A stretch of 64,000 nt of DNA, from positions 32 to 64,031 of the IMG/VR virus record IMGVR_UViG_3300037471_000673. One strand, given 5' to 3'. The DNA is from a virus. Lineage: Duplodnaviria > Caudoviricetes. Under the pieces are notes generated by a model. The model made no database searches. It had not been told where the DNA came from and saw only the letters and a program-made list of their open reading frames with translations. The translations under genes were made by a program, and so were the position numbers. Position 1 is the stretch's first letter. The number at the start of each line of letters is the position of its first letter. Shown piece by piece: positions 1-64,000 of this stretch.

Positions 1-147
1 TGCGAACAGACGCAGCGCAAGGTCGAAGAAATCGGCGAGCGCAGTGCGGCCGCGGCCGAGAAATTCGGCCTTGGCTCAGCAGGTACTCGTGGCGTGGATA
101 CGTCCCGCGCCCCCTCTGATCCCCAACGTAACGAAGGAGGCAAGTGA
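1..147 (+). CDS. 3' end of a small cassette gene (5'-truncated by the window)
   Basis: Frame 1 is open from base 1 (...KFGLGSAGTRGVDTSRAPSDPQRNEGGK*). Its stop overlaps the ATG at 147. Confidence 0.7.
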   Translation, partial: CEQTQRKVEEIGERSAAAAEKFGLGSAGTRGVDTSRAPSDPQRNEGGK

Positions 148-464
148 TGCCCCAACTCAAAGCAACCTGCCCCATCGACGGCGAGCCGAGCATCAGCGAA
201 ATCGTCGCCGAGTTGGCGGCGGGCGCTTTCATCGAACTGCACGACGACGGGCGCTACGAGCTGCGCCATCCCGGCAAGTTCATCGGCGATCACACGATGC
301 AGCACCACCTGATTCGCCACGGCTGGCTGGACAGCACCGCGAACTGCGGCGGCTACGTTCTGTCTACAGACGGACACCGCGCCTACATGCGCAGCACCGA
401 CGAACTCGGCAACGGCGAGTTGGTGCCGCCACTCCCCCGTGGCGTGCGGGAGAACGGCAAATGA
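147..464 (+). CDS. Hypothetical cassette protein
   Basis: GAAGGAGG RBS then ATG; ends PRGVRENGK*. Confidence 0.8.
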   Translation: MPQLKATCPIDGEPSISEIVAELAAGAFIELHDDGRYELRHPGKFIGDHTMQHHLIRHGWLDSTANCGGYVLSTDGHRAYMRSTDELGNGELVPPLPRGVRENGK

Positions 465-628
465 TCTACGGAACCTACGGCGAGGGGTGCGAACACTTCC
501 GCTTCCGCCGAGTACGCCCCGGCGTTTATCAGCGCGTGGTGCGCCTGTTCGGCTTCTTGTGGTTCGTGGACAAGGGACGACAACTTCGTGACCATGACGC
601 CATGTTTTTCCCGATGGAATCACCATGA
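461..628 (+). CDS. Hypothetical protein (55 aa)
   Basis: ATGA overlap with the upstream stop; GGAG RBS within the repeat arm. Confidence 0.7.
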   Translation: MIYGTYGEGCEHFRFRRVRPGVYQRVVRLFGFLWFVDKGRQLRDHDAMFFPMESP

Positions 629-861
629 CTCATCCACACATTGATGGCGTGTGTGCGCGTTGCGGCGGTGCTGGCACGGTTCCCGAAGTGCAGGCGCTGT
701 TGCGAAAGCTGTGGCTCGAAGGCGGCGGCAATCCCGACATCGCCGAGCCAACCGAACAGGAAGTAGCAGACCTGATGCATGGCCTCACTGTCCTTGTCGA
801 TGAATATGAGCGCGAGGAAGCGGAACGCATTGCTGGCGTGCAGGAGAACGGCAATGGCTGA
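625..861 (+). CDS. Hypothetical cassette protein with CxxCxG motif
   Basis: ATGA coupling; CARCGG near the N-terminus; ends IAGVQENGNG*. Confidence 0.75.
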   Translation: MTHPHIDGVCARCGGAGTVPEVQALLRKLWLEGGGNPDIAEPTEQEVADLMHGLTVLVDEYEREEAERIAGVQENGNG

Positions 862-1057
862 AATTAAGTTCACCGAGCAAGAGGCACGACAGGGCTATGC
901 GATGCGCAACGGCACGAAGCACTACTGCTGCTATGGCATGTACGCCGACGTAGGCCATTCAGAAGACTGTAAACACTTCTGGAAGGAAAAGAACGAAGCG
1001 CGCAAGGCTGGCTCAGCAGGTACTCGTGGCGTGCAGGAGAACGGCAATGGCCGGTAA
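854..1057 (+). CDS. Hypothetical cassette protein (Cys/His-containing)
   Basis: ATG and RBS supplied by the repeat right arm; ends GSAGTRGVQENGNGR*. Confidence 0.75.
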   Translation: MAEIKFTEQEARQGYAMRNGTKHYCCYGMYADVGHSEDCKHFWKEKNEARKAGSAGTRGVQENGNGR

Positions 1058-1349
1058 CGCTAGCGCCCGCTACTTCACCGAGTTCATGAAGAAGTGGTAT
1101 CCGATGTTCTCGCGTCGCGCTACGCAGCTTTGCATCCTGAGCAGCGCGATGGAAAAGATCGCACTTGGCGCGCCTGACGCGCGGGCCATCGCAATTCTGG
1201 CGCTTGAGCAATCTGACCCGTTCGGATGGAAGCAAAGGCGTGACCCGTTGATGGTTGTAGCCGGATTGCTGCCCGACTCATCAGGTACTCGTGGCGTGCC
1301 ATCCGTCTCACCGACTGCTGATCCCCAACGTAACGAAGGAGGCTCGTGA
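1047..1349 (+). CDS. Hypothetical cassette protein
   Basis: ATG in the repeat arm; ends SGTRGVPSVSPTADPQRNEGGS*. Confidence 0.75.
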   Translation: MAGNASARYFTEFMKKWYPMFSRRATQLCILSSAMEKIALGAPDARAIAILALEQSDPFGWKQRRDPLMVVAGLLPDSSGTRGVPSVSPTADPQRNEGGS

Positions 1350-1618
1350 TGCCCAACTACAAGCTATTCCATGTGGACGATTGCATGTACATCGCGGCCA
1401 TGACCGGCGAGGAAGCCGCCGCCCACGTCAAGGACGAATGCGGCGATGGTTGCGGCGAGTCGGTGAGCGAAGTCTCGCTCGACATGCGCGTGACGACTGC
1501 GAACGTCGATGACGGCGAGGAAGCCACGCCGGACACAATGACCACAGCAGGCGCGCTTATCGAGGATCACCTCAAGCACGGCGGCAAGCTGCCCTACACC
1601 CTCGGAGGGTCCGAATGA
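1349..1618 (+). CDS. Acidic hypothetical protein
   Basis: GAAGGAGG RBS within the duplicated 26-bp segment; translational coupling on both sides. Confidence 0.8.
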   Translation: MPNYKLFHVDDCMYIAAMTGEEAAAHVKDECGDGCGESVSEVSLDMRVTTANVDDGEEATPDTMTTAGALIEDHLKHGGKLPYTLGGSE

Positions 1619-2304
1619 GCAACAACGCACAACTGGCGCTTTTCATCGGCGCGATGTTCGCGGGCGGCATAGGCGTGCTGCTGTGGGGCGAGCGCCTGCG
1701 GCTGAAGGATCGGCTTGCCGAGACCGAGGACGAGCTGCAACGCTGGAAGCGCGCATGGCGCGACCACGACCGATGGCTCGCGCTCACGCATCCCGGCATC
1801 GAGTTGGTGCTGACGAACCTTCGCCAGCAGGCGGAGGGTAAGCATCCGCTCGACGTGTGCTGGCCGCCATCGAAAACCGGGCCGTGGGAAGTAAGCCGCT
1901 TGCGCGAAGTGCTCAAGACGCGCTACGGGCTCGGCTCAGCAGGTACTCGTGGCGTGCGGGCCATTGACGACACCGCGCGACTCGACTGGATCGCACAGCA
2001 AGGCGGCGACGAGTTCGGCTACGGCGTGATCGCGGACGCTCCCGGCGACGGCAACTACTGGGTCAGCGGCATGGACGGCGCACGCGGGCAAGGCAAGACC
2101 TTCCGCGAAGCACTCGACGCAGCCATTGCTGGCGTGGCTTCGGTTGAAGCGTCGAGCATCACGGCAATGCAGGCGCTTGAGGCGCTGGATGAACTGGAGG
2201 CGTCGGCACGCGGCGACGAGCCGTTCAACCACTTCGCCGCGCCGCTGATTCGCCAGTTCATCGAGCAGGACATTGATGGCGTGGGAGGAAGCGATGCAGC
2301 TTGA
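1615..2304 (+). CDS. Modular hypothetical protein (N-terminal TM/coiled coil; three internal repeat cores)
   Basis: 229-aa ORF with cores at 1950, 2130 and 2277, all in frame. It contains a DTARLDWI...TFREALDAAIA module that recurs in phage accessory proteins. Confidence 0.8.
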   Translation: MSNNAQLALFIGAMFAGGIGVLLWGERLRLKDRLAETEDELQRWKRAWRDHDRWLALTHPGIELVLTNLRQQAEGKHPLDVCWPPSKTGPWEVSRLREVLKTRYGLGSAGTRGVRAIDDTARLDWIAQQGGDEFGYGVIADAPGDGNYWVSGMDGARGQGKTFREALDAAIAGVASVEASSITAMQALEALDELEASARGDEPFNHFAAPLIRQFIEQDIDGVGGSDAA

Positions 2305-2542
2305 ACATTGCCCGTTCTGCGGCACGAAGCACAGCCTTTCGTCGTGCGTTGCTGGCCGCCACCAGCAAGTCATTTGCGGCGCCTGCGGTGCGCGAGGGCC
2401 GGAGGTCTATGCCTTCCTGCCCTACGCCGTCGCCGCTGAGTCGTGGAACGTTCGCAACCAGCCCGCCGAGGTCAACACCACGCACCGGCCTGACGGCGCA
2501 CGTATTGCTGGCGTGCAGGAGAACGGCAATGCCCATGACTAA
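2294..2542 (+). CDS. Lar-family restriction alleviation protein
   Basis: LEHCPFCG...VICGACGARGP...AAESWNVR matches the Lar-like Zn-ribbon pattern (CPFCG...CxxCGA.GP...A...WN.R). Confidence 0.75.
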   Translation: MQLEHCPFCGTKHSLSSCVAGRHQQVICGACGARGPEVYAFLPYAVAAESWNVRNQPAEVNTTHRPDGARIAGVQENGNAHD

Positions 2543-2693
2543 GCAAGAGGTCCGCAGCTTCCTAGCGCAGTTCGACCGTGCGCGCAAGGAAATCAAACGC
2601 TGGCCGAAGTGGATGCAGCGCGAAGCACGGTTCGCCGCTGCGACGTTTCCAAAGCCGCCCACTGTTGGCGTGCAGGAGAACGGTAATGGCTGA
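2535..2693 (+). CDS. Hypothetical cassette protein (52 aa)
   Basis: Coupled start; ends VGVQENGNG*. Confidence 0.7.
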   Translation: MTKQEVRSFLAQFDRARKEIKRWPKWMQREARFAAATFPKPPTVGVQENGNG

Positions 2694-2784
2694 CTTTCCG
2701 TGGTGGGGCTGGATATTCGTCGCCCTCGCCGTGATCGGCTTCGCGCTCGCCTGCTGCAAGGCGTGGGAGAACGGCAATGGCTGA
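2686..2784 (+). CDS. 32-aa single-pass membrane peptide
   Basis: MADFPWWGWIFVALAVIGFALACCKAWENGNG; RBS and ATG come from the repeat arm. Confidence 0.6.
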   Translation: MADFPWWGWIFVALAVIGFALACCKAWENGNG

Positions 2785-3073
2785 ACAACTTCCACAGCTT
2801 CCGCTGCCCCGAGTGCGTCGACACCGCACATCCTGCGCCGTATTCGGTCCGAGTCCCGGACCCTGCGACTGCGGCTCGCCGCCGAAGGTCTACGACGACG
2901 ACGAGATGCGGCGCTACGGCGAGCAATGCCGAAGAGCCACCGCTGGCGCGCAAGCATTCCCGGCCACCCCAAAACTCAGCACTGGCGCGGCTTCCAGCCC
3001 GATTAACGAATCCGAACCGGCCACCCCCAATGGCGTGCCGGGTGCGGGCAAAACGTCTTCCGAGAAGGAGTAA
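2777..3073 (+). CDS. Hypothetical cassette protein, Pro-rich
   Basis: ATG in the repeat arm; PCDCG motif; core at 3031 read as NGV. Confidence 0.7.
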   Translation: MAEQLPQLPLPRVRRHRTSCAVFGPSPGPCDCGSPPKVYDDDEMRRYGEQCRRATAGAQAFPATPKLSTGAASSPINESEPATPNGVPGAGKTSSEKE

Positions 3074-3078
3074 CAGCG

Positions 3079-3315
3079 ATGCCCGACTTCAAAGAGATCG
3101 CCGAGTTTTCGGTCCAGATTCCTGGCGGCGGTCACTTCCGCGCCTCCTGGCCCCGGTCAATCAGCACGACAGGCCTACGCATGGGCCGCGACATGCTGAA
3201 CCTCACGCTCGATTGGTGGATCGAGAAGGGCCGGGAAGCGAAGGACGCCGAGGCCGAATACGCGAGCTGGTCAATCGCCTGTGGCGTGACAACGCCCGAC
3301 CAGCAACCGAAATAA
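3079..3315 (+). CDS. Hypothetical cassette protein
   Basis: AAGGAG RBS; core at 3282 near the 3' end (CGV). Confidence 0.75.
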   Translation: MPDFKEIAEFSVQIPGGGHFRASWPRSISTTGLRMGRDMLNLTLDWWIEKGREAKDAEAEYASWSIACGVTTPDQQPK

Positions 3316-3327
3316 CGAAAGCCACCC

Positions 3328-3762
3328 ATGAAAAAACTCAAGCCTATGCGGGTGCTGGTAACTGGCGGCCGCACCAAGACACTGCAGCGTCTGGGCATCG
3401 ATGCCGGGGCTGTGCATGTGCAAGTCGTGCGCACGCTCAACGCCATCAGCGCCTGCGGCGATCGTGAGGTGACCATCATTCACGGCGGAGCGACGGGCGT
3501 CGATGCCATGGCTGACGCATGGGCCGATCGCACGCACACGATCAAGGAGGTCTACCCGATTTCCAAAGAGGAGTGGGACAGCCTTGGCAAAGCCGCAGGC
3601 CCGACGCGCAACGCGTTCATGCTCACCAAGAAGCCTGATGTTGTCGTCGCGTTCGTCGGGGGCAACGGCACGATCGACATGGTGGCGCGGGCAAGAGATG
3701 CGGGTGTACGTGTGTTTGAGGTGCCGCGCCCTGCAATCGTCGAGGTGCCTGCGACGTGCTAG
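3328..3762 (+). CDS. SLOG-family (DUF2493/YspA-like) protein
   Basis: RVLVTGGR...IIHGGATGVDAMADAWA...GKAAGPTRNAFML...VVAFVGGNGT pattern. Confidence 0.8.
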   Translation: MKKLKPMRVLVTGGRTKTLQRLGIDAGAVHVQVVRTLNAISACGDREVTIIHGGATGVDAMADAWADRTHTIKEVYPISKEEWDSLGKAAGPTRNAFMLTKKPDVVVAFVGGNGTIDMVARARDAGVRVFEVPRPAIVEVPATC

Positions 3763-5348
3763 TCCACACCCCCAGCAAGTCACTGGTCGTTCACGTGCGC
3801 CCCGACAAGGTGGCCACGCTCAAGGGTATATTTCCGGCGCACCACCGCGTGGTTCATCATGGAGGCGAGGAGCTGCTGGCACTGCCGCACACGATCCCCG
3901 TCACGCGTGTGCTGCGCAACATGGGCATTCGCGCGCCCAGCCCGATTCGCTACTACTACGACTGGCCGCGGCCAGCGCGCTTCACGGCGGTGTTCGATCA
4001 CCAGTACACGACGGCGGAGTTCCTCACGCTGCACAACAAGTGCTTCGTGCTCAACGAGATGGGCACATCCAAAACGGCCAGTGCGTTATGGGCTGCGGAC
4101 TACCTGATGCGGATCGGCCACGTCAAGAAGGTGCTGATCTGCGCGACGCTGTCCACGCTGGAATCTGTGTGGCTCAATGAAATCTTCGACGTGTGCATGC
4201 ACCGCAACGCGCTGGTACTGCACGCCGATGCCGAGAAGCGCCGCGAGATGCTCGCGCGCGATGTGGACTTCTACATCATCAACCACGCCGGGCTGAAGAT
4301 CATCGGCAACGAGATCATCCGCCGCAAGGACATCGACCTCGTGATCGTGGATGAAGCCTCGGTGTACCGCAACGCGCAGACCGAGCAGTACGAAATCCTC
4401 GAACGCGTGGTGCGCGAGAAAAAGCTGTGGCTGCTCACAGGCGCGCCGGCACCGAACGCTCCTACCGACGTGTGGGCCCTTGCGCGTCTTGTCAACAAGT
4501 CGCTGGTACCCGCGCACTTCACCGCGTTCAAGCGCAAGACGATGTCGCAGGTGTCCACCTACAAGTGGGTGCCGCGCCCGGGAAGCCACGAGACGGCGTT
4601 CGCAGCCCTGCAGCCAGCGATCCGTTTCAAGAAGTCGGACTGCCTGACGCTGCCGCCCGTGACATACACCACGCGCAAGTGTGAGCTGGAGCCCGAGCAG
4701 CTGCGCGCCTACGAGCAGATGAAGCTGCACCTCGTGGCCGAAGTGACTAACGGGGCATCACCCGTCACCGCTGTGAATGCCGCCGACAAGATCGCCAAGC
4801 TGCGGCAAATCCTGTGCGGTGCGATCAAGGGCGCAGACGGCAACTACGTCGTGCTGCCGCACGGCAAGCGCCTGAAAATTCTGCAGGAGTACATCGAGCA
4901 GGCCGCGGCCAAGGTGCTGGTGATCGTGCCCTTCAAGGGCATCGCCCGCGTGCTGGAAGACGAGCTGAACGCGTGGCATCAGTCCAAGGGCGACGGCCGG
5001 CGCGTGAAGCTGGTGAATGGCGACGTGTCGCTGACCGAGCGCAACCGCATCTTCCAAGACTTCCGCGACGATCCGGACCTCACGGAACTGGTGTGTCACC
5101 CGCAGGTGATGGCGCATGGCCTGAACATGACGCAGGCCGACATGCTGGTGTTCTACGCGCCGATCTACTCGAACGACCAGAGCGGGCAGGTGATGGACCG
5201 CATCAATCGCCCGGGGCAGACCATGCACATGACGGTGGGGCGCATCGTGGCCAACCCGCTGGAGCAAGGCATCTACGCGATGGTCGAAGGCCGCCAGCAA
5301 GGCCAGATGAACATGCTGGAGCTGTTCAGGAAAGAGGTGATGGGATGA
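3756..5348 (+). CDS. SNF2-like (SF2) DNA helicase
   Basis: EMGTSKT (Walker A variant), VIVDEAS, LLTGAP, GLNM motif V and DRINRPGQ motif VI. Confidence 0.9.
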   Translation: MLVHTPSKSLVVHVRPDKVATLKGIFPAHHRVVHHGGEELLALPHTIPVTRVLRNMGIRAPSPIRYYYDWPRPARFTAVFDHQYTTAEFLTLHNKCFVLNEMGTSKTASALWAADYLMRIGHVKKVLICATLSTLESVWLNEIFDVCMHRNALVLHADAEKRREMLARDVDFYIINHAGLKIIGNEIIRRKDIDLVIVDEASVYRNAQTEQYEILERVVREKKLWLLTGAPAPNAPTDVWALARLVNKSLVPAHFTAFKRKTMSQVSTYKWVPRPGSHETAFAALQPAIRFKKSDCLTLPPVTYTTRKCELEPEQLRAYEQMKLHLVAEVTNGASPVTAVNAADKIAKLRQILCGAIKGADGNYVVLPHGKRLKILQEYIEQAAAKVLVIVPFKGIARVLEDELNAWHQSKGDGRRVKLVNGDVSLTERNRIFQDFRDDPDLTELVCHPQVMAHGLNMTQADMLVFYAPIYSNDQSGQVMDRINRPGQTMHMTVGRIVANPLEQGIYAMVEGRQQGQMNMLELFRKEVMG

Positions 5349-8749: not shown

Positions 8750-11677
8750 TTGAACGCGCGTGAGTTTCTCGAACTTCTGCTGCCCTCCACAGGGTACATC
8801 TTCACTGCTACGCCGCTGGGCCGTGGCTGGTCCAACACCAGCCACAGGTCGATCGAGTCTGCGGTTGCGCACGTCAATGCGCTGACCTTCGCGGGCCGCA
8901 ACGCGTACTTCGCGGTTTCCACCTACGAGCACGAGCGCGTGTGGGACGCGAACTGGCGCGATCCCGAAAGTGGCAACGTCGTGGGCAAGTGGGTGCAGCG
9001 CACCCAAGCCAACGCGCTGTCCATCAAGTCGTTCTTCCTTGACCTCGACGTCGATGCGAACGACGAGAACAAGTTCGACAGCAAGGAACAGGCGCTCGTC
9101 GAGCTGCGTGCGTTCGTGCAGAAAGTCGGCCTGCCGCGCCCCATGATCGTGGACTCGGGCGGTGGCATCCACGTCTACTGGCCCCTTGCCCACGAGGTGG
9201 CAACAGCGACATGGCGACGTGTTGCTGACATCTTCAAGTCGATCTGCCTGTCCGAGAAGTTTCGTGCGGATCGCTCGCTTACATCGGACCAAGCTCGTGT
9301 GCTGCGCGTGCTGGGGGGCTACAACTTCCGGCGCGGCGCCTACGTGCGGCTGCTGGCACCGGCCACGCCCATTGGCTTCGCGGACTTCGAGCAGCGCCTG
9401 CAGGCGTTCGTCGACCAGCATGGTGTGTCGGTACCCGGGCCTGCGCGCGCTGCGGCCGCACTGCCGGCGATTCAAGGCAAGCCTGCCGATCCCTTCGATG
9501 CGGGCAACCTCGGCGCGAGCAACGATCCGCTGCACCTTGATCGCATCATCTTCGCCTGCCCCCAGATGCAGCTGCAGGCGGCCAACCGCGGGGCCACAAC
9601 GGGTGAGCAGCTGTGGAGAGCGGCGCTGGGCCTCGCCAAGTTCAGCGAACCACTGGAGCCCTCGTATCGCTGCGTGAGCGATGGCCACCCGGAGTTCAGC
9701 GATGCGGCCACGCTGGTCAAGATGAACAACTGGCGCACAGGGCCTACCACCTGTGAGCACTTCCACCAGCTCAACCCCAAGGTGTGCGAGGCATGCCCGC
9801 ACTTCACCAAGATCACCTCGCCCGCGCAGCTGGGGCGCACGGTCATCGAGGCAGCCGCCCCCAAGATCACCGTGGCTACCGACGCTGGCCCGCCGGTCGT
9901 GCTGCAGCTGCCCGATCCACCCAAGGGCTACTCGCGCCGCAAGTCGGACAATGCGATCGTGATGGAGACCGAAGATGAAGACGGCAACCTCGAATACATC
10001 ACGATCTGCCCCTACGATCTGTACCCACTGGCGCTGCGCGCGCAGTCCGGCGAGGTCAACATCGACGAGCGCAGCCAGTGGCGCGTACACCTGCCGATTC
10101 ACAAGGGGCAAGGGCGCGAGGCGCGCGACATCGACGTGCCGCTGGGCCTGCTGTCCGACACCCGCGCCCTGTCCAAGCACCTGTTCTCAAAGGGGGTCAT
10201 CTTGAGCGGCGACCAACCGAAAGCCACCCAGCACTACATGTCAGCGTATTTGCAGAAACTTGCCGACGAGGCGGGGCGTGAAAAACTTTACGAGCGCCTT
10301 GGCTGGCACGACGAGCACCGCACCTTCGTGCTGGGCGACCGGGTGCTGCGCCGCGACGGCTCTATCCAGCCGCACGTTGCTGCAGCGTCGATCCGCAACA
10401 CCACGCGCAACGGGCTGCGCAGCGCCGGCACCATCGAAGGCTGGAAGAACGCGATGCAGTTTTACAACCGGCCCGGCTACGAAGGACATCGTTTCTTCCT
10501 TTACGCGGCGTTAGGTGCCCCCATTTTCCACATGAACGATACGGGCAATAAAGGCGTCCTCATGACAGCCAGCGGCCAATCCGGACGTGGGAAAACTACC
10601 TGTCTTAAAGCCTGCGGTTCGATCTGGGGACACCCCGAGGCGCTCATCATGAACGGCAACAAGGATGGCTCCACGGTCAACGCGCTGTACTCTGCCATCG
10701 GCACCACGCACTCGCTGCCCTTCATGTGGGACGACATCACCGAGCGCGACCCCGACGAGCTGCGCCGCTTCCTGTTAAATATCTCGCAGGGGCAGGGCAA
10801 GCGGCGCATGACCAGCGACTCGCGCCAGTCCGAGCACGCCGACGTGTGGGAGACCATCGTGCTGGCCACCGCCAACACCGACGACATCTCGCGCATCCTG
10901 TCAAGCGGGCGCGACGTGAACCCGCACCTGATGCGCATGGTGGGCGTGGAGTTCAGCGCGATCGACATGGGCGTGGAAGCCAAGATCAAGGCCGACGAGT
11001 TCCTGCGCGAGATGAACGCGAACTACGGTCATGCAGGCCCAGCGATGATGCGAGTGCTGGTGCCGAACTACGATCGTGTGCGCACCGGCTACATCAAGAA
11101 CGTGGCCATGGTCGATCGCATGCTGGGATCGAACAACGCGAGCGCTGAGCGCTACTGGTCAGCCACGGTGGCTGCGGCCTACACGGGCGCGCAGCTGGCC
11201 ACGACGATGGGGCTGATCGACTTTCCTGTGCAGGCCGATCTGCAGTGGATGATCGATCACCTGTCGCAGCAGCGCACGACCATCAAGGAGTCCAGCAGCA
11301 CGCCGCTGGAGCAGCTCACCGCGTTCCTGAACGGGGCGCTGCGCAGCACGCTGATCCTGTCGGCCAAGGCAGCGTCGAACCTTGACAACGTGATCCACAA
11401 GCCGATGGACGAACTGCTCGTGCGCAACGAGATGGACCACAACGTGCTGTTCGTCGCACGCGCCGCGATCATGAAATACTGCGCCGACAACCGCGTGGCG
11501 TTCAAGCCCTTCGAGGCGGCGCTGGAGCGAGAAGGCGTTGTGCTCATTCGCAATGCGCAGAAGGTGCTGGGCGCTGACACCGTGTACGCCAGCGGGCAGA
11601 CGCGCTGCTGGAAGGTCGATGCAAGCCGACTTGGTGGCCTGCAGATGCCGCCACCGAACAATGGAGCGAAACCTTGA
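8750..11677 (+). CDS. Primase-helicase fusion (RepB-like primase, Zn motif, DUF927, SF3-like ATPase)
   Basis: FFLDLDVD and SGGGIHVYW primase motifs, CEHF...CEACPH, GWHD (DUF927-like), GQSGRGKTT Walker A. Confidence 0.88.
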   Translation: MNAREFLELLLPSTGYIFTATPLGRGWSNTSHRSIESAVAHVNALTFAGRNAYFAVSTYEHERVWDANWRDPESGNVVGKWVQRTQANALSIKSFFLDLDVDANDENKFDSKEQALVELRAFVQKVGLPRPMIVDSGGGIHVYWPLAHEVATATWRRVADIFKSICLSEKFRADRSLTSDQARVLRVLGGYNFRRGAYVRLLAPATPIGFADFEQRLQAFVDQHGVSVPGPARAAAALPAIQGKPADPFDAGNLGASNDPLHLDRIIFACPQMQLQAANRGATTGEQLWRAALGLAKFSEPLEPSYRCVSDGHPEFSDAATLVKMNNWRTGPTTCEHFHQLNPKVCEACPHFTKITSPAQLGRTVIEAAAPKITVATDAGPPVVLQLPDPPKGYSRRKSDNAIVMETEDEDGNLEYITICPYDLYPLALRAQSGEVNIDERSQWRVHLPIHKGQGREARDIDVPLGLLSDTRALSKHLFSKGVILSGDQPKATQHYMSAYLQKLADEAGREKLYERLGWHDEHRTFVLGDRVLRRDGSIQPHVAAASIRNTTRNGLRSAGTIEGWKNAMQFYNRPGYEGHRFFLYAALGAPIFHMNDTGNKGVLMTASGQSGRGKTTCLKACGSIWGHPEALIMNGNKDGSTVNALYSAIGTTHSLPFMWDDITERDPDELRRFLLNISQGQGKRRMTSDSRQSEHADVWETIVLATANTDDISRILSSGRDVNPHLMRMVGVEFSAIDMGVEAKIKADEFLREMNANYGHAGPAMMRVLVPNYDRVRTGYIKNVAMVDRMLGSNNASAERYWSATVAAAYTGAQLATTMGLIDFPVQADLQWMIDHLSQQRTTIKESSSTPLEQLTAFLNGALRSTLILSAKAASNLDNVIHKPMDELLVRNEMDHNVLFVARAAIMKYCADNRVAFKPFEAALEREGVVLIRNAQKVLGADTVYASGQTRCWKVDASRLGGLQMPPPNNGAKP

Positions 11678-11895
11678 GCCAAGAAAAGACCGCTATGGAG
11701 CTGGCGTTCGAGCGCGCTACCCGAAAGCACCTCGTGAACAAACTGCTCCCGCCCGGCTACGAGTACAAGACCTATGGGGTTGCCATCACCGCCGAAACGG
11801 AAGGCGATCTGTACGAGAAGATCACAGGCCATCGCAGCGAGGTGCTCGACGCAGCCGAGGAACGCAGGAAAGGCCGGCGCCGTGCCCCCCGCTGA
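11674..11895 (+). CDS. Hypothetical protein
   Basis: TTGA overlap with the primase stop; GGAG RBS. Confidence 0.6.
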   Translation: MSQEKTAMELAFERATRKHLVNKLLPPGYEYKTYGVAITAETEGDLYEKITGHRSEVLDAAEERRKGRRRAPR

Positions 11896-12043
11896 TTTTT
11901 CCCTGTGGCAGCGTGCCACGCTGGAGCGGTTCGCCCGGCAGGCCGCGGACGAGAACCGTGAGCTGCGCGAGCGCGTGCGCCTGCTGGAAGCCGTGATGAA
12001 GCACGTAGTGGAACTGCTCGAAAAGGCTGCCACCAAAAAATGA
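11882..12043 (+). CDS. Short coiled-coil protein
   Basis: ENRELRERVRLLEAVMK heptads; coupled to the next gene. Confidence 0.6.
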   Translation: MPPADFSLWQRATLERFARQAADENRELRERVRLLEAVMKHVVELLEKAATKK

Positions 12044-12429
12044 GCCGCAAGTACACCACGCTGTACGAACGCCTTGTGGCCAACACCGTGCTGGCCGAAG
12101 AAGATAACCCGAATAGCTGCTGGGTGTGGACAGGCCCGCGGCGCGGGCGCTACGGCTGCCTGTGCGTACGCGTGCCGGGTGGAGGGCGCAGCACCAAGCC
12201 CAAGACGATCAGTGCGCACAGGGCGATGCTCGAAGAGTTCCACAACATCGTGTTTCCCTTCGACGAGGGTGGCCACACCTGCTACGAGAGGCTGTGCATC
12301 AACCCGATGCATCTGGAAGTGCAGACGAGGGTCCACAACTTAGGCGAGCGCCGCGGCTATAGCATGGTCGAAGGCTGCATGATCCCGGTGCTGTACCCGC
12401 GCGATGACGATGCGCTGATCCCGTTCTGA
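12040..12429 (+). CDS. HNH/His-Cys-type homing endonuclease-like protein
   Basis: CWVWTG...YG...AHR...HTCYERLCINPMHL. Confidence 0.85.
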   Translation: MSRKYTTLYERLVANTVLAEEDNPNSCWVWTGPRRGRYGCLCVRVPGGGRSTKPKTISAHRAMLEEFHNIVFPFDEGGHTCYERLCINPMHLEVQTRVHNLGERRGYSMVEGCMIPVLYPRDDDALIPF

Positions 12430-12466
12430 AAAAGAAAACCCCCAGCGCTCTCTACTTCGCTGGGGG
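12429..12466 (-). terminator. Rho-independent terminator ending the late operon
   Basis: CCCCCAGCG/CGCTGGGGG stem with an A-run on its left (U-tract on the minus strand), where the two operons converge. Confidence 0.75.
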
Positions 12467-12538
12467 CTGAGGACGGATGCTCGCTGTCAAAAGCACCCGG
12501 AGGAGACAAGTTCACTCTAGGCTGAGTTCACCGATCCG

Positions 12539-12880
12539 TCAAGGCTGAGTTGTGACAGCCGCGGCCGGCGCCTTCACGGTCAGGGCGAGCAGCGACGCGA
12601 TCGCCGGGCTCTTGGTGAAGATCGTCACGAGCACGGAGACCAGCGGCTCCAGCTTGGCCCACACGGCTTCAATGAGGGGGATGTCCATCTGCGCCTTGGC
12701 CAGCGTGTTGGAGACCCACGTTTTCACGAGATCGAGTTTGACGGTGCCGTTGCCGGGACCGATGGCTGCTTCAGCGGCTTGGATCATGTCGGGCAGCATC
12801 TTGGCCACGCCCACTGCGGCCTGAGCGGCAGGGGCCATGGCGGCGAGCTGGGCGGAGAGTTTTTCGGCGGAGATGGTCAT
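12539..12880 (-). CDS. Hypothetical protein at the end of the lysis cassette (amphipathic)
   Basis: AAGGAAG upstream; last gene of the late operon. Confidence 0.75.
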   Translation of the reverse strand: MTISAEKLSAQLAAMAPAAQAAVGVAKMLPDMIQAAEAAIGPGNGTVKLDLVKTWVSNTLAKAQMDIPLIEAVWAKLEPLVSVLVTIFTKSPAIASLLALTVKAPAAAVTTQP

Positions 12881-13012
12881 GGGTGGCTTCCTTGGTTAGG
12901 GAGTCTGGATTATTTACGTAGCTCAGCTGTTGCGCAACTAATTTTTGGCGCTTACTTGCAAGCGTAAGTGATGCCGATCGACAGGCACTCTACGCGCGGC
13001 GGTTGCCCGAGA

Positions 13013-13423
13013 TCATGCGCCTCCTCGCAACGTATCGCTGTCCTGACGACTGAGAGGTGCGGGCTCAGGCCGCACCCAGACCGTTGCTGGCTGGCTTTGA
13101 GGTGCTGCCACTGCGCCTGCAGCGGGGTCGGCAGCGGCGGCAGCAGCGGGCGTGGCTGCGGCGGCTTGGGTAAGGGCCCCACGGGCTGCCCAATGGCCAA
13201 ACCCGGCCACGCCGCCGGCAACAAGAAAGCCAAAAGCAGACAGCGTGTCAGGATCGAGAAAGACCACGAGCGAGGCATATTTCGTTCCTCCCAGAGCTTT
13301 CACTGCTACTGCAGCAATGGCCGTGATCGCGGCGGCGAGCGCGGTGCGGTCGTGGTGTGCGAGTGCTTCTTCGACAGAGCGTTCGTCACGCCACGCGGTC
13401 AAGGCGGTGGGGATCAGGTTCAC
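13013..13423 (-). CDS. Membrane protein (holin/antiholin or spanin-like)
   Basis: GTG start overlaps the upstream stop; two hydrophobic segments and an Ala/Pro-rich tail. Confidence 0.6.
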   Translation of the reverse strand: MNLIPTALTAWRDERSVEEALAHHDRTALAAAITAIAAVAVKALGGTKYASLVVFLDPDTLSAFGFLVAGGVAGFGHWAARGALTQAAAATPAAAAAADPAAGAVAAPQSQPATVWVRPEPAPLSRQDSDTLRGGA

Positions 13424-13695
13424 GAGCGTTCCTTTGCTTGCACCATCAGACGCACGATGGCTGACCACAGCGGCGAAAAACACGCTGCGATGATCTGGTT
13501 GGGTTTGCCCTCTTGCACCAGAATGATGTCGCCGTCGTGGCTGCGTGCGAGGTGGCCTTCCTTGGTGGGCTCCTGCTGCGCCAGCCGCGCGACATCGGCC
13601 AACCGCTTGAGTGCCTTGGTGTGAGCGGTGTAGTCGTGCGCCTCGTAGGCGTTGCGTACATCGAGACTTAGGTGGTCGACATTGACGATGGTCAT
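13420..13695 (-). CDS. Hypothetical protein
   Basis: GGAGG RBS; coupled to the endolysin stop. Confidence 0.65.
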   Translation of the reverse strand: MTIVNVDHLSLDVRNAYEAHDYTAHTKALKRLADVARLAQQEPTKEGHLARSHDGDIILVQEGKPNQIIAACFSPLWSAIVRLMVQAKERS

Positions 13696-14303
13696 GCGAG
13701 TGCCTCCTGCGCGCGCTGCGCGAGTTGGGTGATGTGCTCCATGCCCAGCGTGCCGCCATTGACTTTGCGCCGCAGCTTGACTTGGTCGCCGAGCATAGTG
13801 TCGGGGATGGTTCCTTCCCACCAGCCGATCGCAGCATCGAGGCCGTAATGCGGCTGCAAGATCAACTGGGGCAAGACAGTGAGGTCTTGCCCAATGAGGT
13901 CTCCGACGTGGTCGTAGGCCGCGCGCCCCGTGATCATGATCGGGCACTTGCCGGCGAAGTCCCAGCCGTCCTCGGGCTGCGTGTTGCCCATGCGCCCACC
14001 GTACACCTTGTTGGCCAGTGCGCGTGGGTTGTGTGCATAGGGCACGGCGTCATCCACGCGTGGAAAGCGCATCGGCCACACGGCAACGATGCGATCAGCG
14101 GAGTAGTTCAGGTTTTCCTGCAGGCATTCGAGCATCGAGCACTCCCACAGGATTTGCGGCAGCCACGACTTGATATCGTCCATGCCGGCGGAGAAGCGCT
14201 CGGGCTGTACTTCATCCTCGAAGGCTGAAGCCCACGCGACGGCCGTCGTTGCCTGCACACCCATCGCGCATAGAATACGGTCCCAGTCGCGTTCGGTGAT
14301 CAT
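13692..14303 (-). CDS. GH19 (chitinase-like) endolysin
   Basis: PQILWE...QENLNYSA...NPRALANKVYGGRMGN...DGW...ITGR..Y pattern of phage GH19 lysins. Confidence 0.85.
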   Translation of the reverse strand: MITERDWDRILCAMGVQATTAVAWASAFEDEVQPERFSAGMDDIKSWLPQILWECSMLECLQENLNYSADRIVAVWPMRFPRVDDAVPYAHNPRALANKVYGGRMGNTQPEDGWDFAGKCPIMITGRAAYDHVGDLIGQDLTVLPQLILQPHYGLDAAIGWWEGTIPDTMLGDQVKLRRKVNGGTLGMEHITQLAQRAQEALA

Positions 14304-14590
14304 GGTGCGAAGTCCTTGCGTGAGCTGTCGGGGGGTTTGGCTGACCAGCGCCGCCGCGTGGACTGGATAAGCAGGGCCATCGCGATTACGCCAAGCGCGT
14401 GGTGCAGCGTCACTTCGCGGCCGTGAAGCACGTCCAGCGCCACACCGAACGCGAAGGTCGCGGAGAACGTGTACGCCAGTATCACGACCTGCCGGTGCGT
14501 GTTGGCATGCAGCATGTCGAGTCGGCAGATGCTCGCGCCGACGACGAACAGGCACACAAGGAGGAAGGCCAACGTGAAGATAAAGGTCAT
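14300..14590 (-). CDS. Putative holin (3 TM)
   Basis: Three hydrophobic segments, a basic C-terminus, and position next to the endolysin. Confidence 0.65.
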   Translation of the reverse strand: MTFIFTLAFLLVCLFVVGASICRLDMLHANTHRQVVILAYTFSATFAFGVALDVLHGREVTLHHALGVIAMALLIQSTRRRWSAKPPDSSRKDFAP

Positions 14591-14949
14591 GTTTGCTTCC
14601 CACGCCAGCGTGAGATGAACGCTTCCAGAATCGCCCCGGCGTTCTTGAGTATGAACGCGGCGAGTGCCTGCGCGAGCAGCCCACCACCGAGGCACGCGAG
14701 GATCAGCATCGGCCGCGACGTCAAGTGCAGGTAGAGAACCGCGCAATTGCCGATCGCAGCGCCCGCAAGCACCGAGAGCATGACGTAGACGATCGCGCGC
14801 GTTCGCCCCATCTGCTCGGCATGTGGCAGGGCCAGCAGCGCGCCCACGAGGGCGTACAGCAGGCTGTAGTAGTCGACACCGAACAGCGCCAGCGACGCCG
14901 TCGAAAGAGCCGCGGCGACTGCAGCCGCGATGCCAGTTTCAGGAACCAT
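14587..14949 (-). CDS. Putative holin-like membrane protein
   Basis: Multiple TM segments (LLYALVGALLAL; VLAGAAIG); GGAGG RBS. Confidence 0.65.
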   Translation of the reverse strand: MVPETGIAAAVAAALSTASLALFGVDYYSLLYALVGALLALPHAEQMGRTRAIVYVMLSVLAGAAIGNCAVLYLHLTSRPMLILACLGGGLLAQALAAFILKNAGAILEAFISRWRGKQT

Positions 14950-15540: not shown

Positions 15541-15963
15541 TCAGTCTCCGTGGGTGGGCGTGTAGTTGCAATGCATCGGGTGGCCGGCGAGTTCTTCGTG
15601 CACACGGCACAGGCGAGCGAACTCGCGTTTCTCGGCACCCGACTGCCATACGGCCGCGGCTGCGACAAGGCCGACAACCGGAGCCGCTGCGGCCGCACCA
15701 GCAAGCACCAGCAGGTTGCTCGCCGTCGCGCCCCACTTCACCGACGAAAGCGTGTGCAGGCACTGCGTCTTGTCAGGCTCGGGCAGCGTCTCGCAGTAGC
15801 CGGCAAACGCGAAGCCACCGATGCAAGCGGGCACGGCACCGATCGGATTGAGTTCGACGCCGAAAGCACTCGTGATGCAGTCCGACGCGCTGGCAGCCTG
15901 CACGGTATTGCCCATGGCAGCCCCAGCTGCGAGAAGAAGCAGCGAGGCGAGAAACTTTTTCAT
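15541..15963 (-). CDS. Secreted Cys-rich protein
   Basis: Signal-peptide-like N-terminus MKKFLASLLLLAAGAAMG; six Cys. Confidence 0.7.
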   Translation of the reverse strand: MKKFLASLLLLAAGAAMGNTVQAASASDCITSAFGVELNPIGAVPACIGGFAFAGYCETLPEPDKTQCLHTLSSVKWGATASNLLVLAGAAAAAPVVGLVAAAAVWQSGAEKREFARLCRVHEELAGHPMHCNYTPTHGD

Positions 15964-15977
15964 AGTGCCGGTCTCCT

Positions 15978-16775
15978 TTACTGTGTACCCACGCAGATGA
16001 ATTGATACTTGTCACTGGTTGAAGGGGCGGTGCCGTTCGTCGTCACCGTCATGGTTGTCGTGGTGGTGACGACTGCGATCGGCATCTTGCCGACGACCAT
16101 GGTGGAAAGCGCCGACTGCACCACGCATGCCGGCGCGCTGGCCCAAGTTCCGTTGAACGTAACGACCCAGCCGCTTGCCGGCGCCCCCGTGCCCCCCATG
16201 GTGACGATGCCGGCGGTATCTGTGCCGGCAACACTTGAGGAGGTACCGCAACTTGCAGTACACGTCGGGGCCGTCGTCTGTGTCGCCGCCAGCTGGGTGG
16301 CACCAGTTCCGGTACCCTGCACAAGAACCTTTGCGGTCGTGCCGCGCCACTTCGGGCTGCTTGCATCGGTCGTGAACAAAGGCGAGGTGTCGAAAACAAA
16401 CTTGCCGGTACCTGTAGCGCCCGTACTCGTCACACCCTCAACCGTCTGATGCCCTGTGAAGGAGTTGGCAGCATCCGTGCGCGCGATAGTCGCCGAGGTC
16501 GACGGGAAAGTCATCGTCGTGCCGTCAGTGCCTGCGAGCGTCAGCGAGTTGTTCACGGTCAGAGCCTTGCCGGCCACACCTGAATATCCCGCTGACGATG
16601 CGAGCCGTGTCCACGTGTTTGTCGCCGAACAGAAATACTCCCCGGGTCGAGAGCTTCCCTGCAGGTAGGTCGTATCGCCTGTCGTGCAAGTGGTAGGCAA
16701 CACAACGCTGACCGAGTCCGCGCCTGCGGCGCACACCGATGCAAAGAGAAGAAGGAGTGCGAGAGTTCGTTTCAT
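15978..16775 (-). CDS. Fibre-like protein with N-terminal signal peptide
   Basis: MKRTLALLLLFASVCAAGA; T/G/S-rich body; C-terminal VTFNGTWASAPACVV fibre-tip-like domain. Confidence 0.7.
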   Translation of the reverse strand: MKRTLALLLLFASVCAAGADSVSVVLPTTCTTGDTTYLQGSSRPGEYFCSATNTWTRLASSAGYSGVAGKALTVNNSLTLAGTDGTTMTFPSTSATIARTDAANSFTGHQTVEGVTSTGATGTGKFVFDTSPLFTTDASSPKWRGTTAKVLVQGTGTGATQLAATQTTAPTCTASCGTSSSVAGTDTAGIVTMGGTGAPASGWVVTFNGTWASAPACVVQSALSTMVVGKMPIAVVTTTTTMTVTTNGTAPSTSDKYQFICVGTQ

Positions 16776-16780
16776 GGTGT

Positions 16781-18802: not shown

Positions 18803-19011
18803 GGTGAGTTCTCCAATTTCAAATCCCCGGAGTTGTCTTCAAGGATGACCCTGCTCGAACCATCCTCTTGAAGCAAATAAAAACTCGGGTCGACAAACGA
18901 CGAAGACGCGTCCGTCATGCGCAGAACCGAAAACTTCAGGGCCGGGCCAATCGCCACGACGGAGCGCGCGTTTGGCTGCGTGACCCTGACTTTGATCACG
19001 GCGCCACCCAC
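18799..19011 (-). CDS. Small virion-associated protein
   Basis: YLLQEDGSSRVILED motif typical of fibre-associated proteins; start uncertain. Confidence 0.55.
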   Translation of the reverse strand: MGGAVIKVRVTQPNARSVVAIGPALKFSVLRMTDASSSFVDPSFYLLQEDGSSRVILEDNSGDLKLENSP

Positions 19012-35126: not shown

Positions 35127-35128
35127 GA

Positions 35129-35887: not shown

Positions 35888-35890
35888 GCC

Positions 35891-36430: not shown

Positions 36431-36708
36431 TCGTCCTCGTCGTTGTCTGCGGATGTTGCAGCCTTGAAGGCCGCGGCGAACTCGTCCTCTTCGATGGGCG
36501 CGAGCTTGTCGAGGATGGAGGTCAAGAACGTCCCCACCTCCTCGGCATTCTTGAAGGCGTAGCTGCGCATCGGGTCTTGCCAGCTGGATCGCGGCTTCAC
36601 GTTTTCAGCCGCGATTTTTGGGTCGCGGATTTCCACCTCGTAGCCGTTGGCCATCTTCTCGATGCGCGCGATGCAGTCGCTCATGGGGATCGCCTCACTG
36701 TAGGCCAT
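36427..36708 (-). CDS. Hypothetical protein
   Basis: RIEKMANGYEVEI motif; acidic tail. Confidence 0.7.
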   Translation of the reverse strand: MAYSEAIPMSDCIARIEKMANGYEVEIRDPKIAAENVKPRSSWQDPMRSYAFKNAEEVGTFLTSILDKLAPIEEDEFAAAFKAATSADNDEDD

Positions 36709-36721
36709 AGGGGTCACCCCC

Positions 36722-61243: not shown

Positions 61244-61250
61244 TTCCACC

Positions 61251-63532: not shown

Positions 63533-63541
63533 GAGACTGCG

Positions 63542-63721
63542 ATGACCTTTGAACGATGCACCGGCTCCGGCCGCACTGTCGAACGCGGCACGGCAACGTG
63601 CCCAACCTGCGGTAAGCCTGTGAAGCTGCTTCGCCGCATGGATTATCCCTATAGCGGAGCGCGCGTGAAGGTGCCGTCGCATGCACCCGCCGTTGGCGTG
63701 AAAGGACCGGAACATGGTTGA
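63542..63721 (+). CDS. Small Zn-ribbon cassette protein (59 aa)
   Basis: AGGAG RBS; CTGSG...CPTCGK; ends PAVGVKGPEHG*; not in the supplied ORF track. Confidence 0.7.
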   Translation: MTFERCTGSGRTVERGTATCPTCGKPVKLLRRMDYPYSGARVKVPSHAPAVGVKGPEHG

Positions 63722-63912
63722 ACCGAAATCGTTTCAAGACGCGCTCCTCGCATACCACGCCCGTCCGTGCGACGAGGAAGCAGAGGCCGTCCGCGCGGCC
63801 ATATTGGACGACGAGAAGCTGCAGGACTTGGCGCTCGATCTTCTACGCGGTGCGATCGATGTGCCTGACTTTCCGGTCGCTGTTAGAGCCGCTCTTGGCG
63901 TGCCATCCGTCT
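63694..63912 (+). repeat. Gene-junction repeat array with TGGCGTG core (window-end part)
   Basis: Cores at 63694 and 63896. The 17 bp TGGCGTGCCATCCGTCT at 63896-63912 is identical to 1292-1308. Confidence 0.9.
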
Positions 63913-63950
63913 TACTGGATGCACAGAAGGGAGGTAACAGCGATGGCTGA
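63714..63950 (+). CDS. Hypothetical cassette protein
   Basis: Ends ALGVPSVLLDAQKGGNSDG*, with the core at 63896. Confidence 0.7.
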   Translation: MVEPKSFQDALLAYHARPCDEEAEAVRAAILDDEKLQDLALDLLRGAIDVPDFPVAVRAALGVPSVLLDAQKGGNSDG

Positions 63951-64000
63951 TAAGCCGGGATGGAGAGAAGGCATCCCCTGCCCTGAATGCGGCTCGTTTC
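63943..64000 (+). CDS. 5' end of a cassette gene (truncated by the window)
   Basis: GGAGG RBS; MADKPGWREGIPCPECGSF... Confidence 0.65.
   Translation, partial: MADKPGWREGIPCPECGSF

Follow-up and report, generated by a model that had tools for sequence, protein, structure and literature searches.

Does the mosaicism of phage genomes arise from homologous exchange at conserved linkers, or from random illegitimate joins that are filtered by selection? This debated question is raised by a locus in the window, which here denotes the whole 64,000-nt stretch of tailed-phage DNA that was analysed (IMG/VR record IMGVR_UViG_3300037471_000673). About 18 small early phage genes lie there in one run and are joined through an invariant, frame-locked 7-base word, TGGCGTG, referred to below as the core. 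The array is an unusually clean natural case, with one phase-locked word at approximately 55 joints and flanking sequences (the left and right arms) that reassort freely, and through its core the source of mosaicism becomes testable. On balance we lean, if not strongly, towards the reading that the short in-frame junction sequences serve as portable homology or microhomology for the shuffling of cassettes among co-infecting phages, with selection keeping the reading frame and the relay of stop codon, ribosome-binding site (RBS) and start codon.

The window contains 33 copies of the core, compared with 20.2 ± 4.2 in shuffled sequences, and 15 of these lie on the + strand within approximately 3.7 kb (63694-64000 plus 1-3288), where 0.4-0.6 would be expected (Poisson P about 1e-17 to 1e-19). 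In an unbiased scan TGGCGTG is the top locally clustered 7-mer of the window genome, as it is in three more IMG/VR contigs, denoted G1, G2 and L149 (15, 15 and 9 copies, respectively); a fragment of an array with two copies is found on L7, a G1-like phage contig. The window array runs across both contig ends, which do not join in frame, indicating that the contig is broken inside the array. Its features are collected in Table 1. The open reading frames (ORFs) at 63542..64000 are chained by the stop/start overlaps ATGGTTGA and ATGGCTGA, and a SLOG gene at 3328 lies directly beyond the end of the array.

Table 1. Features of the gene array in the window (coordinates of the window unless another contig is named).
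Feature	Position	Strand	Remarks
Array, first part	63542..64000	+	Genes 63542-63721 and 63714-63950; gene starting at 63943 cut by the contig end
Array, main part	1..3315	+	ORF chain; opens with the 5'-truncated gene 1-147
Complete array genes, first half	147-464, 461-628, 625-861, 854-1057, 1047-1349, 1349-1618	+	
Complete array genes, second half	1615-2304, 2294-2542, 2535-2693, 2686-2784, 2777-3073, 3079-3315	+	
Core	63694..63700	+	Followed by tail KGPEHG* and next start; same right arm at L149 12355
Core	63896..63902	+	Followed by R2-type arm CCATCCGTCTTACTGGATGC; homology to G1 begins exactly at this core
L1 + core (GSAGTRGV)	73..96	+	Followed by unique tail ending in DPQRNEGG block
DPQRNEGG block: tail, RBS, GTGATG start	116..152	+	Second copy 1318-1354; repeat family D7, 95% identity
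Core + R1 variant CGGGAGAACGGCAAATG	440..463	+	Arm matches G1 13305 over 18 nt
Start codon + short leader MTHPHID + core	625..651	+	N-terminus of gene 625-861
L2 (ATTGC) + core + R1	829..861	+	QENGNG*, ATGGCTGA overlap
L1 + core + R1	1010..1057	+	Base 1027 is the left end of a 273-nt block shared with G1 (98.9%)
Partial L1 + core + R2 + DPQRNEGG block	1282..1354	+	Block shared with G1 ends at base 1299
229-aa ORF	1615..2304	+	Three modules fused in frame at cores 1950, 2130 and 2277
L2 + core + R1	2504..2542	+	End of Lar-like gene
Unique left arm + core + R1	2666..2693	+	
Decayed core AGGCGTG (2759-2765) + R1	2759..2784	+	Other frame (KAWENGNG*)
Core + PGAGKT-type arm	3031..3073	+	
Last core	3282..3288	+	Both arms unique

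All 15 copies in the window array are read in the phase tGGC GTG (Gly-Val) of the coding frame; the phase was assigned by codon-usage scoring in place of a longest-open-frame test, which was dropped because it is uninformative in this GC-rich DNA. The codon preceding the core ends in T in all 15 copies, yet across the copies it specifies seven different residues (V, L, R, D, A, N and C), which places the conservation at the nucleotide level. Within the arrays, NGGCGTG words carry T in 55 cases, C in 4, A in 3 and G in none. The cores are direct repeats on a single strand throughout, and the inverse core CACGCCA is absent from the + strand of the arrays. We rejected a peptide-level signal at Gly-Val (for instance a protease site or a tag) on three grounds: neither the silent positions nor the T before the core varies, the residues on either side of Gly-Val do vary, and at window 2759 and G2 18686 the DNA is kept while the frame is changed.

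The core is exact even where the adjoining arms have diverged to approximately 58% identity, which points to direct selection on the core or to a sequence-specific mechanism rather than to passive microhomology. The junctions show no consensus beyond the 7 nt and no conserved flanks. The core might be a functional signal in DNA or mRNA, for instance the site of a regulator or that of an RNA-processing nuclease acting on the early polycistronic transcript, needed at every unit boundary, so that mosaic boundaries coincide with it as the sole conserved piece. An analogue of such processing is the cleavage at GGAG by T4 RegB. In keeping with this, every copy is found on the transcribed strand, the next start follows most of them at a distance of 10-50 nt, the core is more strongly conserved than the arms, and the start-associated sequences of Cluster K phages show that short conserved words near starts can function (PMC3203893). 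However, the spacing from the core to the next ATG varies between 10 and 50 nt, several cores are followed by no start, and about a quarter of the cores lie within fused ORFs or directly after a start, with no start downstream. The junctions fold at the level of shuffled sequences and without a common structure (z -1.5 to +1.3), and an Rfam search of the array gave no match. A functional signal alone would also leave unexplained the base-exact ends of homology described below and the transfer between phages that have no common regulator, and we regard it as improbable.

The earlier note on this DNA had described three left arms, L1 (GGCTCAGCAGGTACTCG, at 73, 1010 and 1933, with a partial copy at 1282), L2 (ATTGC, at 829, 2125 and 2504) and L3 (ACATTGA, at 638 and 2270), and two right arms, R1 (841, 1034, 2516 and 2673, with variants at 447 and 2766) and R2 (CCATCCGTCT, at 1299 and 63903), and had concluded from their mixed pairings that left and right arms assort independently. 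The positions and the pairings are all correct, and the independence holds in a linkage test of 55 junctions from five arrays, which was also run in a 47-junction version. Around the exact core, the 55 junctions carry 25 unique classes of left arm and 17 of right arm. The same left arm is found in 106 pairs of junctions and the same right arm in 68, and five pairs share both, compared with a permutation mean of 4.85 (P = 0.51) and with approximately 68 if the arms were linked. Many left/right combinations have only the core in common. The PGAGKT-type arm is also found at G1 13658, G1 14290 and G2 17957, each time behind a different left arm.

Tandem duplication of genes, as in paralogous families whose 3' ends are conserved, would make the junctions diverged copies of one long repeat, and a 45-nt unit of L1, core and R1 does occur both at window 1010-1057 and at G1 14175. 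The unlinked arms argue against such an origin, as do the gene bodies, which are unrelated (nothing in common in Pfam, and scattered weak matches in tblastx), and the flanks, which are either near-identical or unrelated, with no gradation between. Descent by tandem duplication is therefore scarcely credible.

The exchange at the core that the earlier note proposed is supported: of the two outcomes that it named as refuting, neither linkage of the arms nor scatter of the breakpoints was found. Where arrays share blocks of 96-100% identity, these start with the first core base or stop with the last one. A further class of breakpoints, however, maps to the outer limits of the arms (the left end of L1 and the stop/start end of right arms). 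Among the free ends of blocks that are 40 nt or longer, 5 of 8 on the left and 4 of 10 on the right fall within 3 nt of a core edge and the rest at arm ends; the chance rate for core-edge ends is approximately 3%, a rough estimate based on 7 allowed positions per core spacing of about 230 nt. Breakpoints of insertions, deletions and replacements are located at cores in the window/G1, G1/G2 and G1/L7 comparisons. A whole gene bounded by two cores, window 1027-1299, corresponds to G1 13910-14182, and the G1 copy has the tail R1 where the window has R2. In L7, which is otherwise 96-99% identical to G1, a 437-bp segment stands in place of 1.9 kb of G1, and the two breakpoints of this replacement both lie at cores. 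A block that is 100% identical in the window, G1 and L7 ends at window base 96, and from 63896 up to the contig end the window matches G1 11585-11689 at 100% identity. We infer that crossover takes place within the 7-bp core; since the core is identical everywhere, the position inside it is not resolvable. Many events could have used the homology of arm plus core, 24-27 bp, rather than the bare core (L1 plus core is 24 nt long, and core plus R1 24-27 nt).

All the data are metagenome assemblies, and chimeric contigs formed across the short repeats of co-occurring phages would also appear as a mosaic. The break of the window contig inside the array would fit this explanation, as would the origin of several contigs from neighbouring IMG samples and the identity of the first 127 nt of the contig to the start of L7 and to a block of G1, which a branch vertex in a k=127 graph would presumably also produce. 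However, arms of 5-27 nt and a core of 7 nt are shorter than assembly k-mers, and every junction is either a working stop/RBS/start or an open in-frame fusion. Moreover, L012 reproduces G1 from another sample, and L149, from an unrelated sample series, has an array of its own with the same core and two arms in common. We consider an assembly artefact very improbable.

The exchange crosses between unrelated phages. G1 is a 42-kb temperate lambdoid phage that has three array blocks in common with the 64-kb window phage, at 99-100% identity; outside the array the two show weak tail-fibre similarity only and no detectable common genes. The nearest relatives of the window phage by helicase (64-67% amino acid identity) carry no array; the array was hence imported. 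No relatives of the array were found among 50,697 GenBank phages by megablast, blastn or tblastn, and the nearest isolate overall, Pseudomonas phage Rollin (portal 39% amino acid identity), has no clustered 7-mer. Scans of genome and metagenome contigs for L1 plus core gave single chance matches only, with no arrays or prophages; the matches in viral contigs L002, L003, L005, L006, L008, L009, L010 and L011 are chance occurrences inside ordinary genes. Clustered 7-mers at other lambdoid loci proved to be tandem coding repeats and were hence rejected as junction arrays.

Base-exact breakpoints, and units that are exchanged whole from core to core, could be the work of dedicated sequence-specific machinery acting at TGGCGTG (a nickase of phage or host, a nuclease of the HNH or homing type, or a recombinase as yet unrecognised), which would make the array a phase-locked, integron-like system with excised circles as intermediates. 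The exactness and universality of the 7-mer, silent positions and preceding T included, and its persistence beside diverged arms are consistent with such an enzyme. On the other hand, the window phage and G1 have no protein in common outside the array and the tail fibres. No integrase and no tyrosine or serine recombinase is present among the window genes flanking the array, and the one integrase of G1, 1.3 kb downstream of its array and accompanied by an Xis-like gene, is of the ordinary phage kind. There is no inverted repeat and no conserved flanking binding site at the junctions. Outside the array the window genome contains 18 copies of the word where approximately 19 are expected; co-oriented cores are not avoided there, and an enzyme that acted efficiently on every bare copy would be hard to reconcile with this lack of depletion. 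We judge dedicated machinery to be unlikely. It is similarly doubtful that TGGCGTG is the recognition or crossover site of an unrecognised phage- or host-borne activity that excises and inserts coding units in fixed phase, in the manner of integrons or exon shuffling, and so assembles accessory proteins, probably for anti-defence, and passes them between unrelated phages of the same host. A Chi-like role as the cause of the base-exact joints was rejected, the word being only one to two times as frequent as its reversed control in five GC-rich genomes; this is a weak test, since the host may not be among them.

In the reading that we favour, shuffling by portable homology, the region would be a hypervariable operon of small accessory early genes, in which the phase-locked T-GGC-GTG bounds units of three kinds: bodies of genes, short leaders at starts, and tails with stop, RBS and start. 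The core and the limited set of arms that usually accompany it would provide the short homology at which DNA of co-infecting phages or resident prophages is joined. Regarding the enzymology, we infer that the phages most likely join the DNA through exonuclease/annealing recombination of their own or through template switching. The general recombination genes of the two phages belong to different families: G1 has a YqaJ exonuclease, and the window encodes a PD-(D/E)XK exonuclease, a VRR-NUC nuclease and a gp2.5-like annealing protein. Events at the bare core would be rare, microhomology-type joints. It speaks against this reading that 7 bp is much less than the homology with which phage annealases are known to work efficiently, given the many combinations noted above that share only the core. 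TGGCGTG occurs about once per 3.5-4 kb in GC-rich genomes, so sites for capture would be plentiful. Selection would retain only the joints that preserve the frame, in which the upstream ORF stops in the tail and ribosomes are handed to the next start.

Because every unit is in the same phase, recombination between cores could have four outcomes: the swap of a whole gene, a change of a gene's tail, deletion of a body to leave a leader-core-tail mini-ORF, and fusion of bodies into multi-module proteins. Mini-ORFs, as predicted from core-to-core deletion, are observed, since leader-core units like that at 625..651 occur in this form in G1, G2 and L149. Fusion may be exemplified by ORF 1615-2304, single modules of which have weak homologues between G2 cores (window 2105-2245 resembles G2 17255-17395). 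The array would thus offer phages a route both to the shuffling of whole small genes and to the in-frame fusion of protein modules. The core itself would persist because units whose core is damaged would cease to spread.

Several known systems resemble the array in part. The promoter-early stem-loop (PeSL) cassettes in the hyperplastic regions of T4-type phages are intergenic regulatory units with a sigma-70 promoter and a terminator stem-loop, and excised circles have been modelled as their vectors between phages (Arbiol et al. 2010, PMC2839356; PMC4122927). In both systems short conserved sequences lie between small non-essential early genes, and recombination between copies shuffles, deletes and replaces genes. 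The array, however, has no promoter, hairpin or intergenic space; on the + strand of 1-3800 and 61000-64000 no promoter-like or terminator-like sites were found, whether sigma-70-like early promoters or terminator stem-loops of the PeSL type. Its invariant part is 7 nt of coding sequence in fixed phase, so that protein modules can be fused too, and its exchange crosses from a lambdoid temperate phage to an unrelated 64-kb phage. Integrons are likewise made of promoterless single-gene units in one orientation, bounded by 7-bp cores and varied in order and context. In contrast to the integron, with IntI, attI and attC (which carries a 7-bp core site), the array has neither IntI nor an attC-type imperfect inverted repeat or hairpin; its junctions lie within coding sequence with the frame kept, and its units may be parts of genes. 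With no common recombinase, hairpin or promoter found, the array is neither an integron nor a PeSL system. It also differs from the R64 shufflon (sfx/Rci), where the Rci recombinase and inverted sfx repeats give rise to inversions, in that its repeats are direct only, with no inverted copies, and no recombinase was found.

Polymorphic toxins carry in-frame demarcation motifs (VENN in CdiA, PxxxxDPxGL in Rhs) and orphan C-terminal cassettes. These motifs, which like the core are short conserved coding sequences marking a point of in-frame module exchange, join one large constant gene to toxin/immunity pairs, whereas the array chains many small unrelated genes with no toxin/immunity logic. The start-associated sequence of Cluster K mycobacteriophages is a 13-bp word that contains the Shine-Dalgarno sequence and has a fixed place just upstream of the start (PMC3203893). 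It shares with the core its shortness, single orientation and association with the translation starts of many unrelated genes; the core, in contrast, is 10-50 nt upstream of the next start or has none, and the RBS-bearing arms are variable. In lambdoid phages, Botstein-type linker or boundary sequences are conserved at gene boundaries and were proposed to target homologous recombination (as summarised in PMC3974807). Linkers and array alike combine a short conserved sequence with mosaic joints at module boundaries, and the array differs in having one universal heptamer at about 55 junctions of five arrays, phase-locked inside ORFs and flanked by arms that reassort independently. What the linker model expects is found here, namely a short conserved sequence between unrelated flanks and joints that coincide with it.

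Among the array genes in 1..3315 the sole Pfam match, a weak one, is the Lar-like gene 2294-2542. Distant homologues of cassette 1047-1349 have neither the GV core nor the tail; the core was hence joined onto the domain. With a Lar-like anti-restriction candidate and many ORFans as its cargo, the array is a good place to search for new counter-defence genes.

TGGCGTG is the top locally clustered 7-mer of the window genome in an unbiased scan. The window, a 64,031-bp viral contig minus 31 bases (G+C 62.7%), contains 33 copies against 20.2 +/- 4.2 in shuffles, and 15 of these lie inside a ~3.7-kb chain of small ORFs, all on the plus strand, where about 0.5 would be expected (P ~1e-17). The 18 copies beyond the chain are ordinary (~19 expected). 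The chained ORFs overlap at their stops and starts (ATGGCTGA, GTGATG or ATGA). Exact-word scans of IMG/VR, together with a protein-anchored scan, found related arrays on four other viral contigs, denoted G1, G2, L7 (L007) and L149. The cores are co-oriented in all of them, and TGGCGTG is likewise the top clustered 7-mer in G1 and G2. G1 is a temperate lambdoid phage, with a YqaJ exonuclease gene on one side of its array and HTH, Xis-like and tyrosine integrase genes on the other. Directly upstream of this exonuclease (L122:8920-9450, in the coordinates of the G1 array contig), a 176-aa protein with no assigned function (phrog_21613) occupies the usual site of a single-strand annealing protein gene.

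Arrays and associated features in the window and related contigs
Feature	Location	Strand	Description
Chain of ~18 small ORFs	window 63542 over contig ends to 3315	plus	ORF chain
G1 array	G1 11585-14705		15 cores; contig of 41,990 bp, complete per CheckV
G2 array	reaching contig end		15 cores; 19.6-kb fragment
L7 array			2 cores; fragment
L149 array	immediately after its exonuclease gene		9 cores; 56.8-kb contig, unrelated sample series
Tail-fibre-like genes	window 15572-18869 vs L123 (G1 34820-36720)	minus (window)	36% aa; sole window/G1 similarity outside arrays
Leader/core/tail mini-ORF	L122:11850-11894		MTQQHTNGVEGTKR, stop
Leader/core/tail mini-ORF	L122:14685-14732		MRHVDGVVGRDGETK, stop
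Leader/core/tail mini-ORF	L149 ~11735-11805		MKHDSGVRELDGEQKNGR, stop

The ends of the window contig fail to join in frame; it does not form a closed circle and is broken inside the array (63943-64000 and 1-147). The G1 blocks matching these two ends are separated by 965 bp. The first 127 nt of the contig are identical to the start of L7, ending exactly at a core. This identity may mark a vertex where a k=127 assembly graph branches, in which case variants in the sample would diverge immediately past that core. Chimeric assembly cannot create mosaics of 7-27 nt that are all functional junctions, and the arrays of L012 (which reproduces G1) and L149, from other samples, also support the arrays as real.

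From the sequence alone, an earlier note had proposed that the arms to the left (L1, L2, L3) and right (R1, R2) of the core assort independently, with strand exchange within its 7 bp. Each arm is found at the coordinate assigned to it, and the pairings were given correctly. In a linkage test of 55 junctions from five arrays, with arm classes defined on each side by 8 nt with at most one mismatch, 106 junction pairs have a common left class, 68 a common right class and 5 both. The permutation mean for the last is 4.85 (P=0.51), whereas ~68 would be expected were the arms to travel together, so independent assortment is borne out. A 47-junction version gave 61, 59 and 2 pairs, respectively (3.3 expected for both). 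A 90-aa homologue (P0001), encoded on a 64,988-bp contig, joins a window-type body of cassette 1047-1349 to a G1-type tail (DSAGTRGVQENGNG) and appears to be an additional left/right recombinant.

Where a core has a long stretch of identity on one flank, the opposite flank has none. Window 1027-1299 corresponds to G1 13910-14182 (98.9%), a single gene between two cores, the tail of which is PSVSPTADPQRNEGGS and stop in the window and QENGNG and stop in G1; G1 14175-14296 corresponds to G2 16804-16925, a single core-to-core unit. The block at the right end of the window begins at core 63896, and that at the left end finishes at base 96. L7 and G1 are 96-99% identical across 5.8 kb downstream, and 437 bp of L7, with a core at either breakpoint, stand in place of 1.9 kb of G1 (eight cassettes). 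When blocks of 40 nt or longer are considered, five of eight free left ends and four of ten free right ends are within 3 nt of a core edge, compared with a chance rate that we estimate at ~3% (7 allowed positions per ~230-nt core spacing), and no breakpoints are scattered within the arms. The other ends coincide with the left boundary of L1 or with the stop/start end of a right arm, so a second class of joints exists at the outer arm ends. G1 and G2 feature the same upstream gene and an MRHVDGV leader, after which G1 has a single tail and G2 a 14-unit array ending in that same tail; this resembles an empty and a filled site, and is suggestive only, with 8 nt of the tail visible before the G2 contig ends.

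In the coding frame, every one of the 15 window copies of the core reads t-GGC-GTG (Gly-Val), and codon-usage scoring chose this frame at 37 of 47 junctions in four arrays; four cores among the exceptions lie ~20 nt past a new start codon, and a fifth exception is a chance copy. The preceding codon encodes V, L, R, D, A, S, N, C, Y, H or P, always with T as its third base (NGGCGTG words in the arrays: T 55, C 4, A 3, G 0). At two junctions (window 2759-2784 and G2 18686) the frame is shifted but the DNA is kept. Since the T is fixed across varied codons and the DNA persists out of frame, the core is conserved at the nucleotide rather than the peptide level. Comparison of the junction flanks found no general conservation outside the 7 nt. 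The core leads either into a short hydrophilic tail, such as the QENGNG of R1, in which the upstream ORF terminates and the RBS and start codon of the following gene are located, or directly into another protein module, as in ORF 1615-2304 with its three in-frame cores. It may also come after a start and a leader of 4-7 codons (window 625-651). Mini-ORFs of 13-25 codons in related contigs consist of a start, leader, core and tail alone; they resemble either cassettes emptied by deletion between cores or docking sites.

In blastn, tblastx and blastp comparisons, only three array blocks (99-100% nt identity) and the weak tail-fibre similarity connect the window phage with G1; the similarity in tail fibres suggests a common host. 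The replication and recombination genes of the window phage (DNA polymerase, PD-(D/E)XK exonuclease, VRR-NUC nuclease, SNF2 helicase, gp2.5-like annealing protein and primase-polymerase) differ from those of G1. Six relatives of the window phage (helicase 64-67% aa) have neither such an array nor the junction repeats, and among the best 80 G1-like exonuclease loci kept, only G1/L012 and L149 have an array. Because the two phages are otherwise unrelated, the window-phage relatives lack the array and it is rare at G1-like loci, the array (or, at a minimum, its junction standard) has moved horizontally between unrelated phages; those exchanging it probably share a host.

The window phage and G1 have no protein in common outside the arrays and tail fibres, the arrays show neither an inverse core nor a hairpin nor a conserved flank for recombinase binding, and co-oriented cores elsewhere in the window genome are not avoided; a dedicated integron-like enzyme is therefore not supported, though one supplied by the host might act on the core. 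General exonuclease/annealing functions, of different families, are present in both phages, and homologies of 24 nt (L1 plus core) and 24-27 nt (core plus R1) are near the minimum for such systems. Since many left/right combinations have only the core in common, some joints would have to arise at 7 bp of identity, as microhomology-type events. The frame would then be locked by selection, as in-phase joints alone would let the upstream ORF terminate within the tail and preserve the hand-over to the next start. New bodies could be captured at pre-existing GGC-GTG sites, because distant homologues of cassette 1047-1349 are without core and tail and TGGCGTG occurs about once per 3.5-4 kb in GC-rich genomes. 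The finding that fits least well with this selection and microhomology model is the exact core beside arms diverged to ~58% identity, which calls for selection acting directly on the core, a step with sequence specificity, or strong survivorship among still-mobile units.

Among described systems, the PeSL cassette of T4-type phages comes closest: there, small early genes are shuffled by recombination between conserved promoter/stem-loop units, which also yields mini-circles (PMC2839356, PMC4122927). The array shows the same behaviour but has neither the promoter nor the stem-loop that define PeSLs. Nor is it a start-associated sequence of the Cluster K type (PMC3203893). Linkers, or boundary sequences, are an older idea for lambdoid phages (summarized in PMC3974807). 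The array is not a shufflon, nor, being without IntI and attC, an integron. To our knowledge, it fits the linker idea better than any other known example.

No promoter-like or terminator-like sites were found on the strand of the array, an Rfam search of the array gave no match, and RNA folds at the junctions were neither significant nor common to them. The cassettes are mostly ORFans; cassette 2294-2542 is weakly Lar-like (24.7 bits, under the Pfam cut-off of 28.6). Decayed 'fossil' junctions are located at window 2759, G2 15375, G1 12641 and L149 11118. The one upstream of the G2 array (L125:15357-15430, in G2 coordinates) combines L1 with a mutated core, TGTCGTG, and an R2-like arm that ends in DPQRN; its similarity to window 72-132 (contig bases 103-163) is 80%. 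Window 2686-2784 is a 32-codon ORF for a hydrophobic peptide (MADFPWWGWIFVALAVIGFALACC...), flanked by two R1 arms, with a decayed core at the 3' junction. Small paralogous genes at window 62221-62810 and L128:3633-8925 feature a conserved N-terminal stretch (M-x-REQMIAWL-x-LEGW in L128, ADLEIHGW and AHLEIHGY in the window). This family occurs in relatives without the TGGCGTG array, and the first 50 nt of the five copies in L128 are 66-100% identical.
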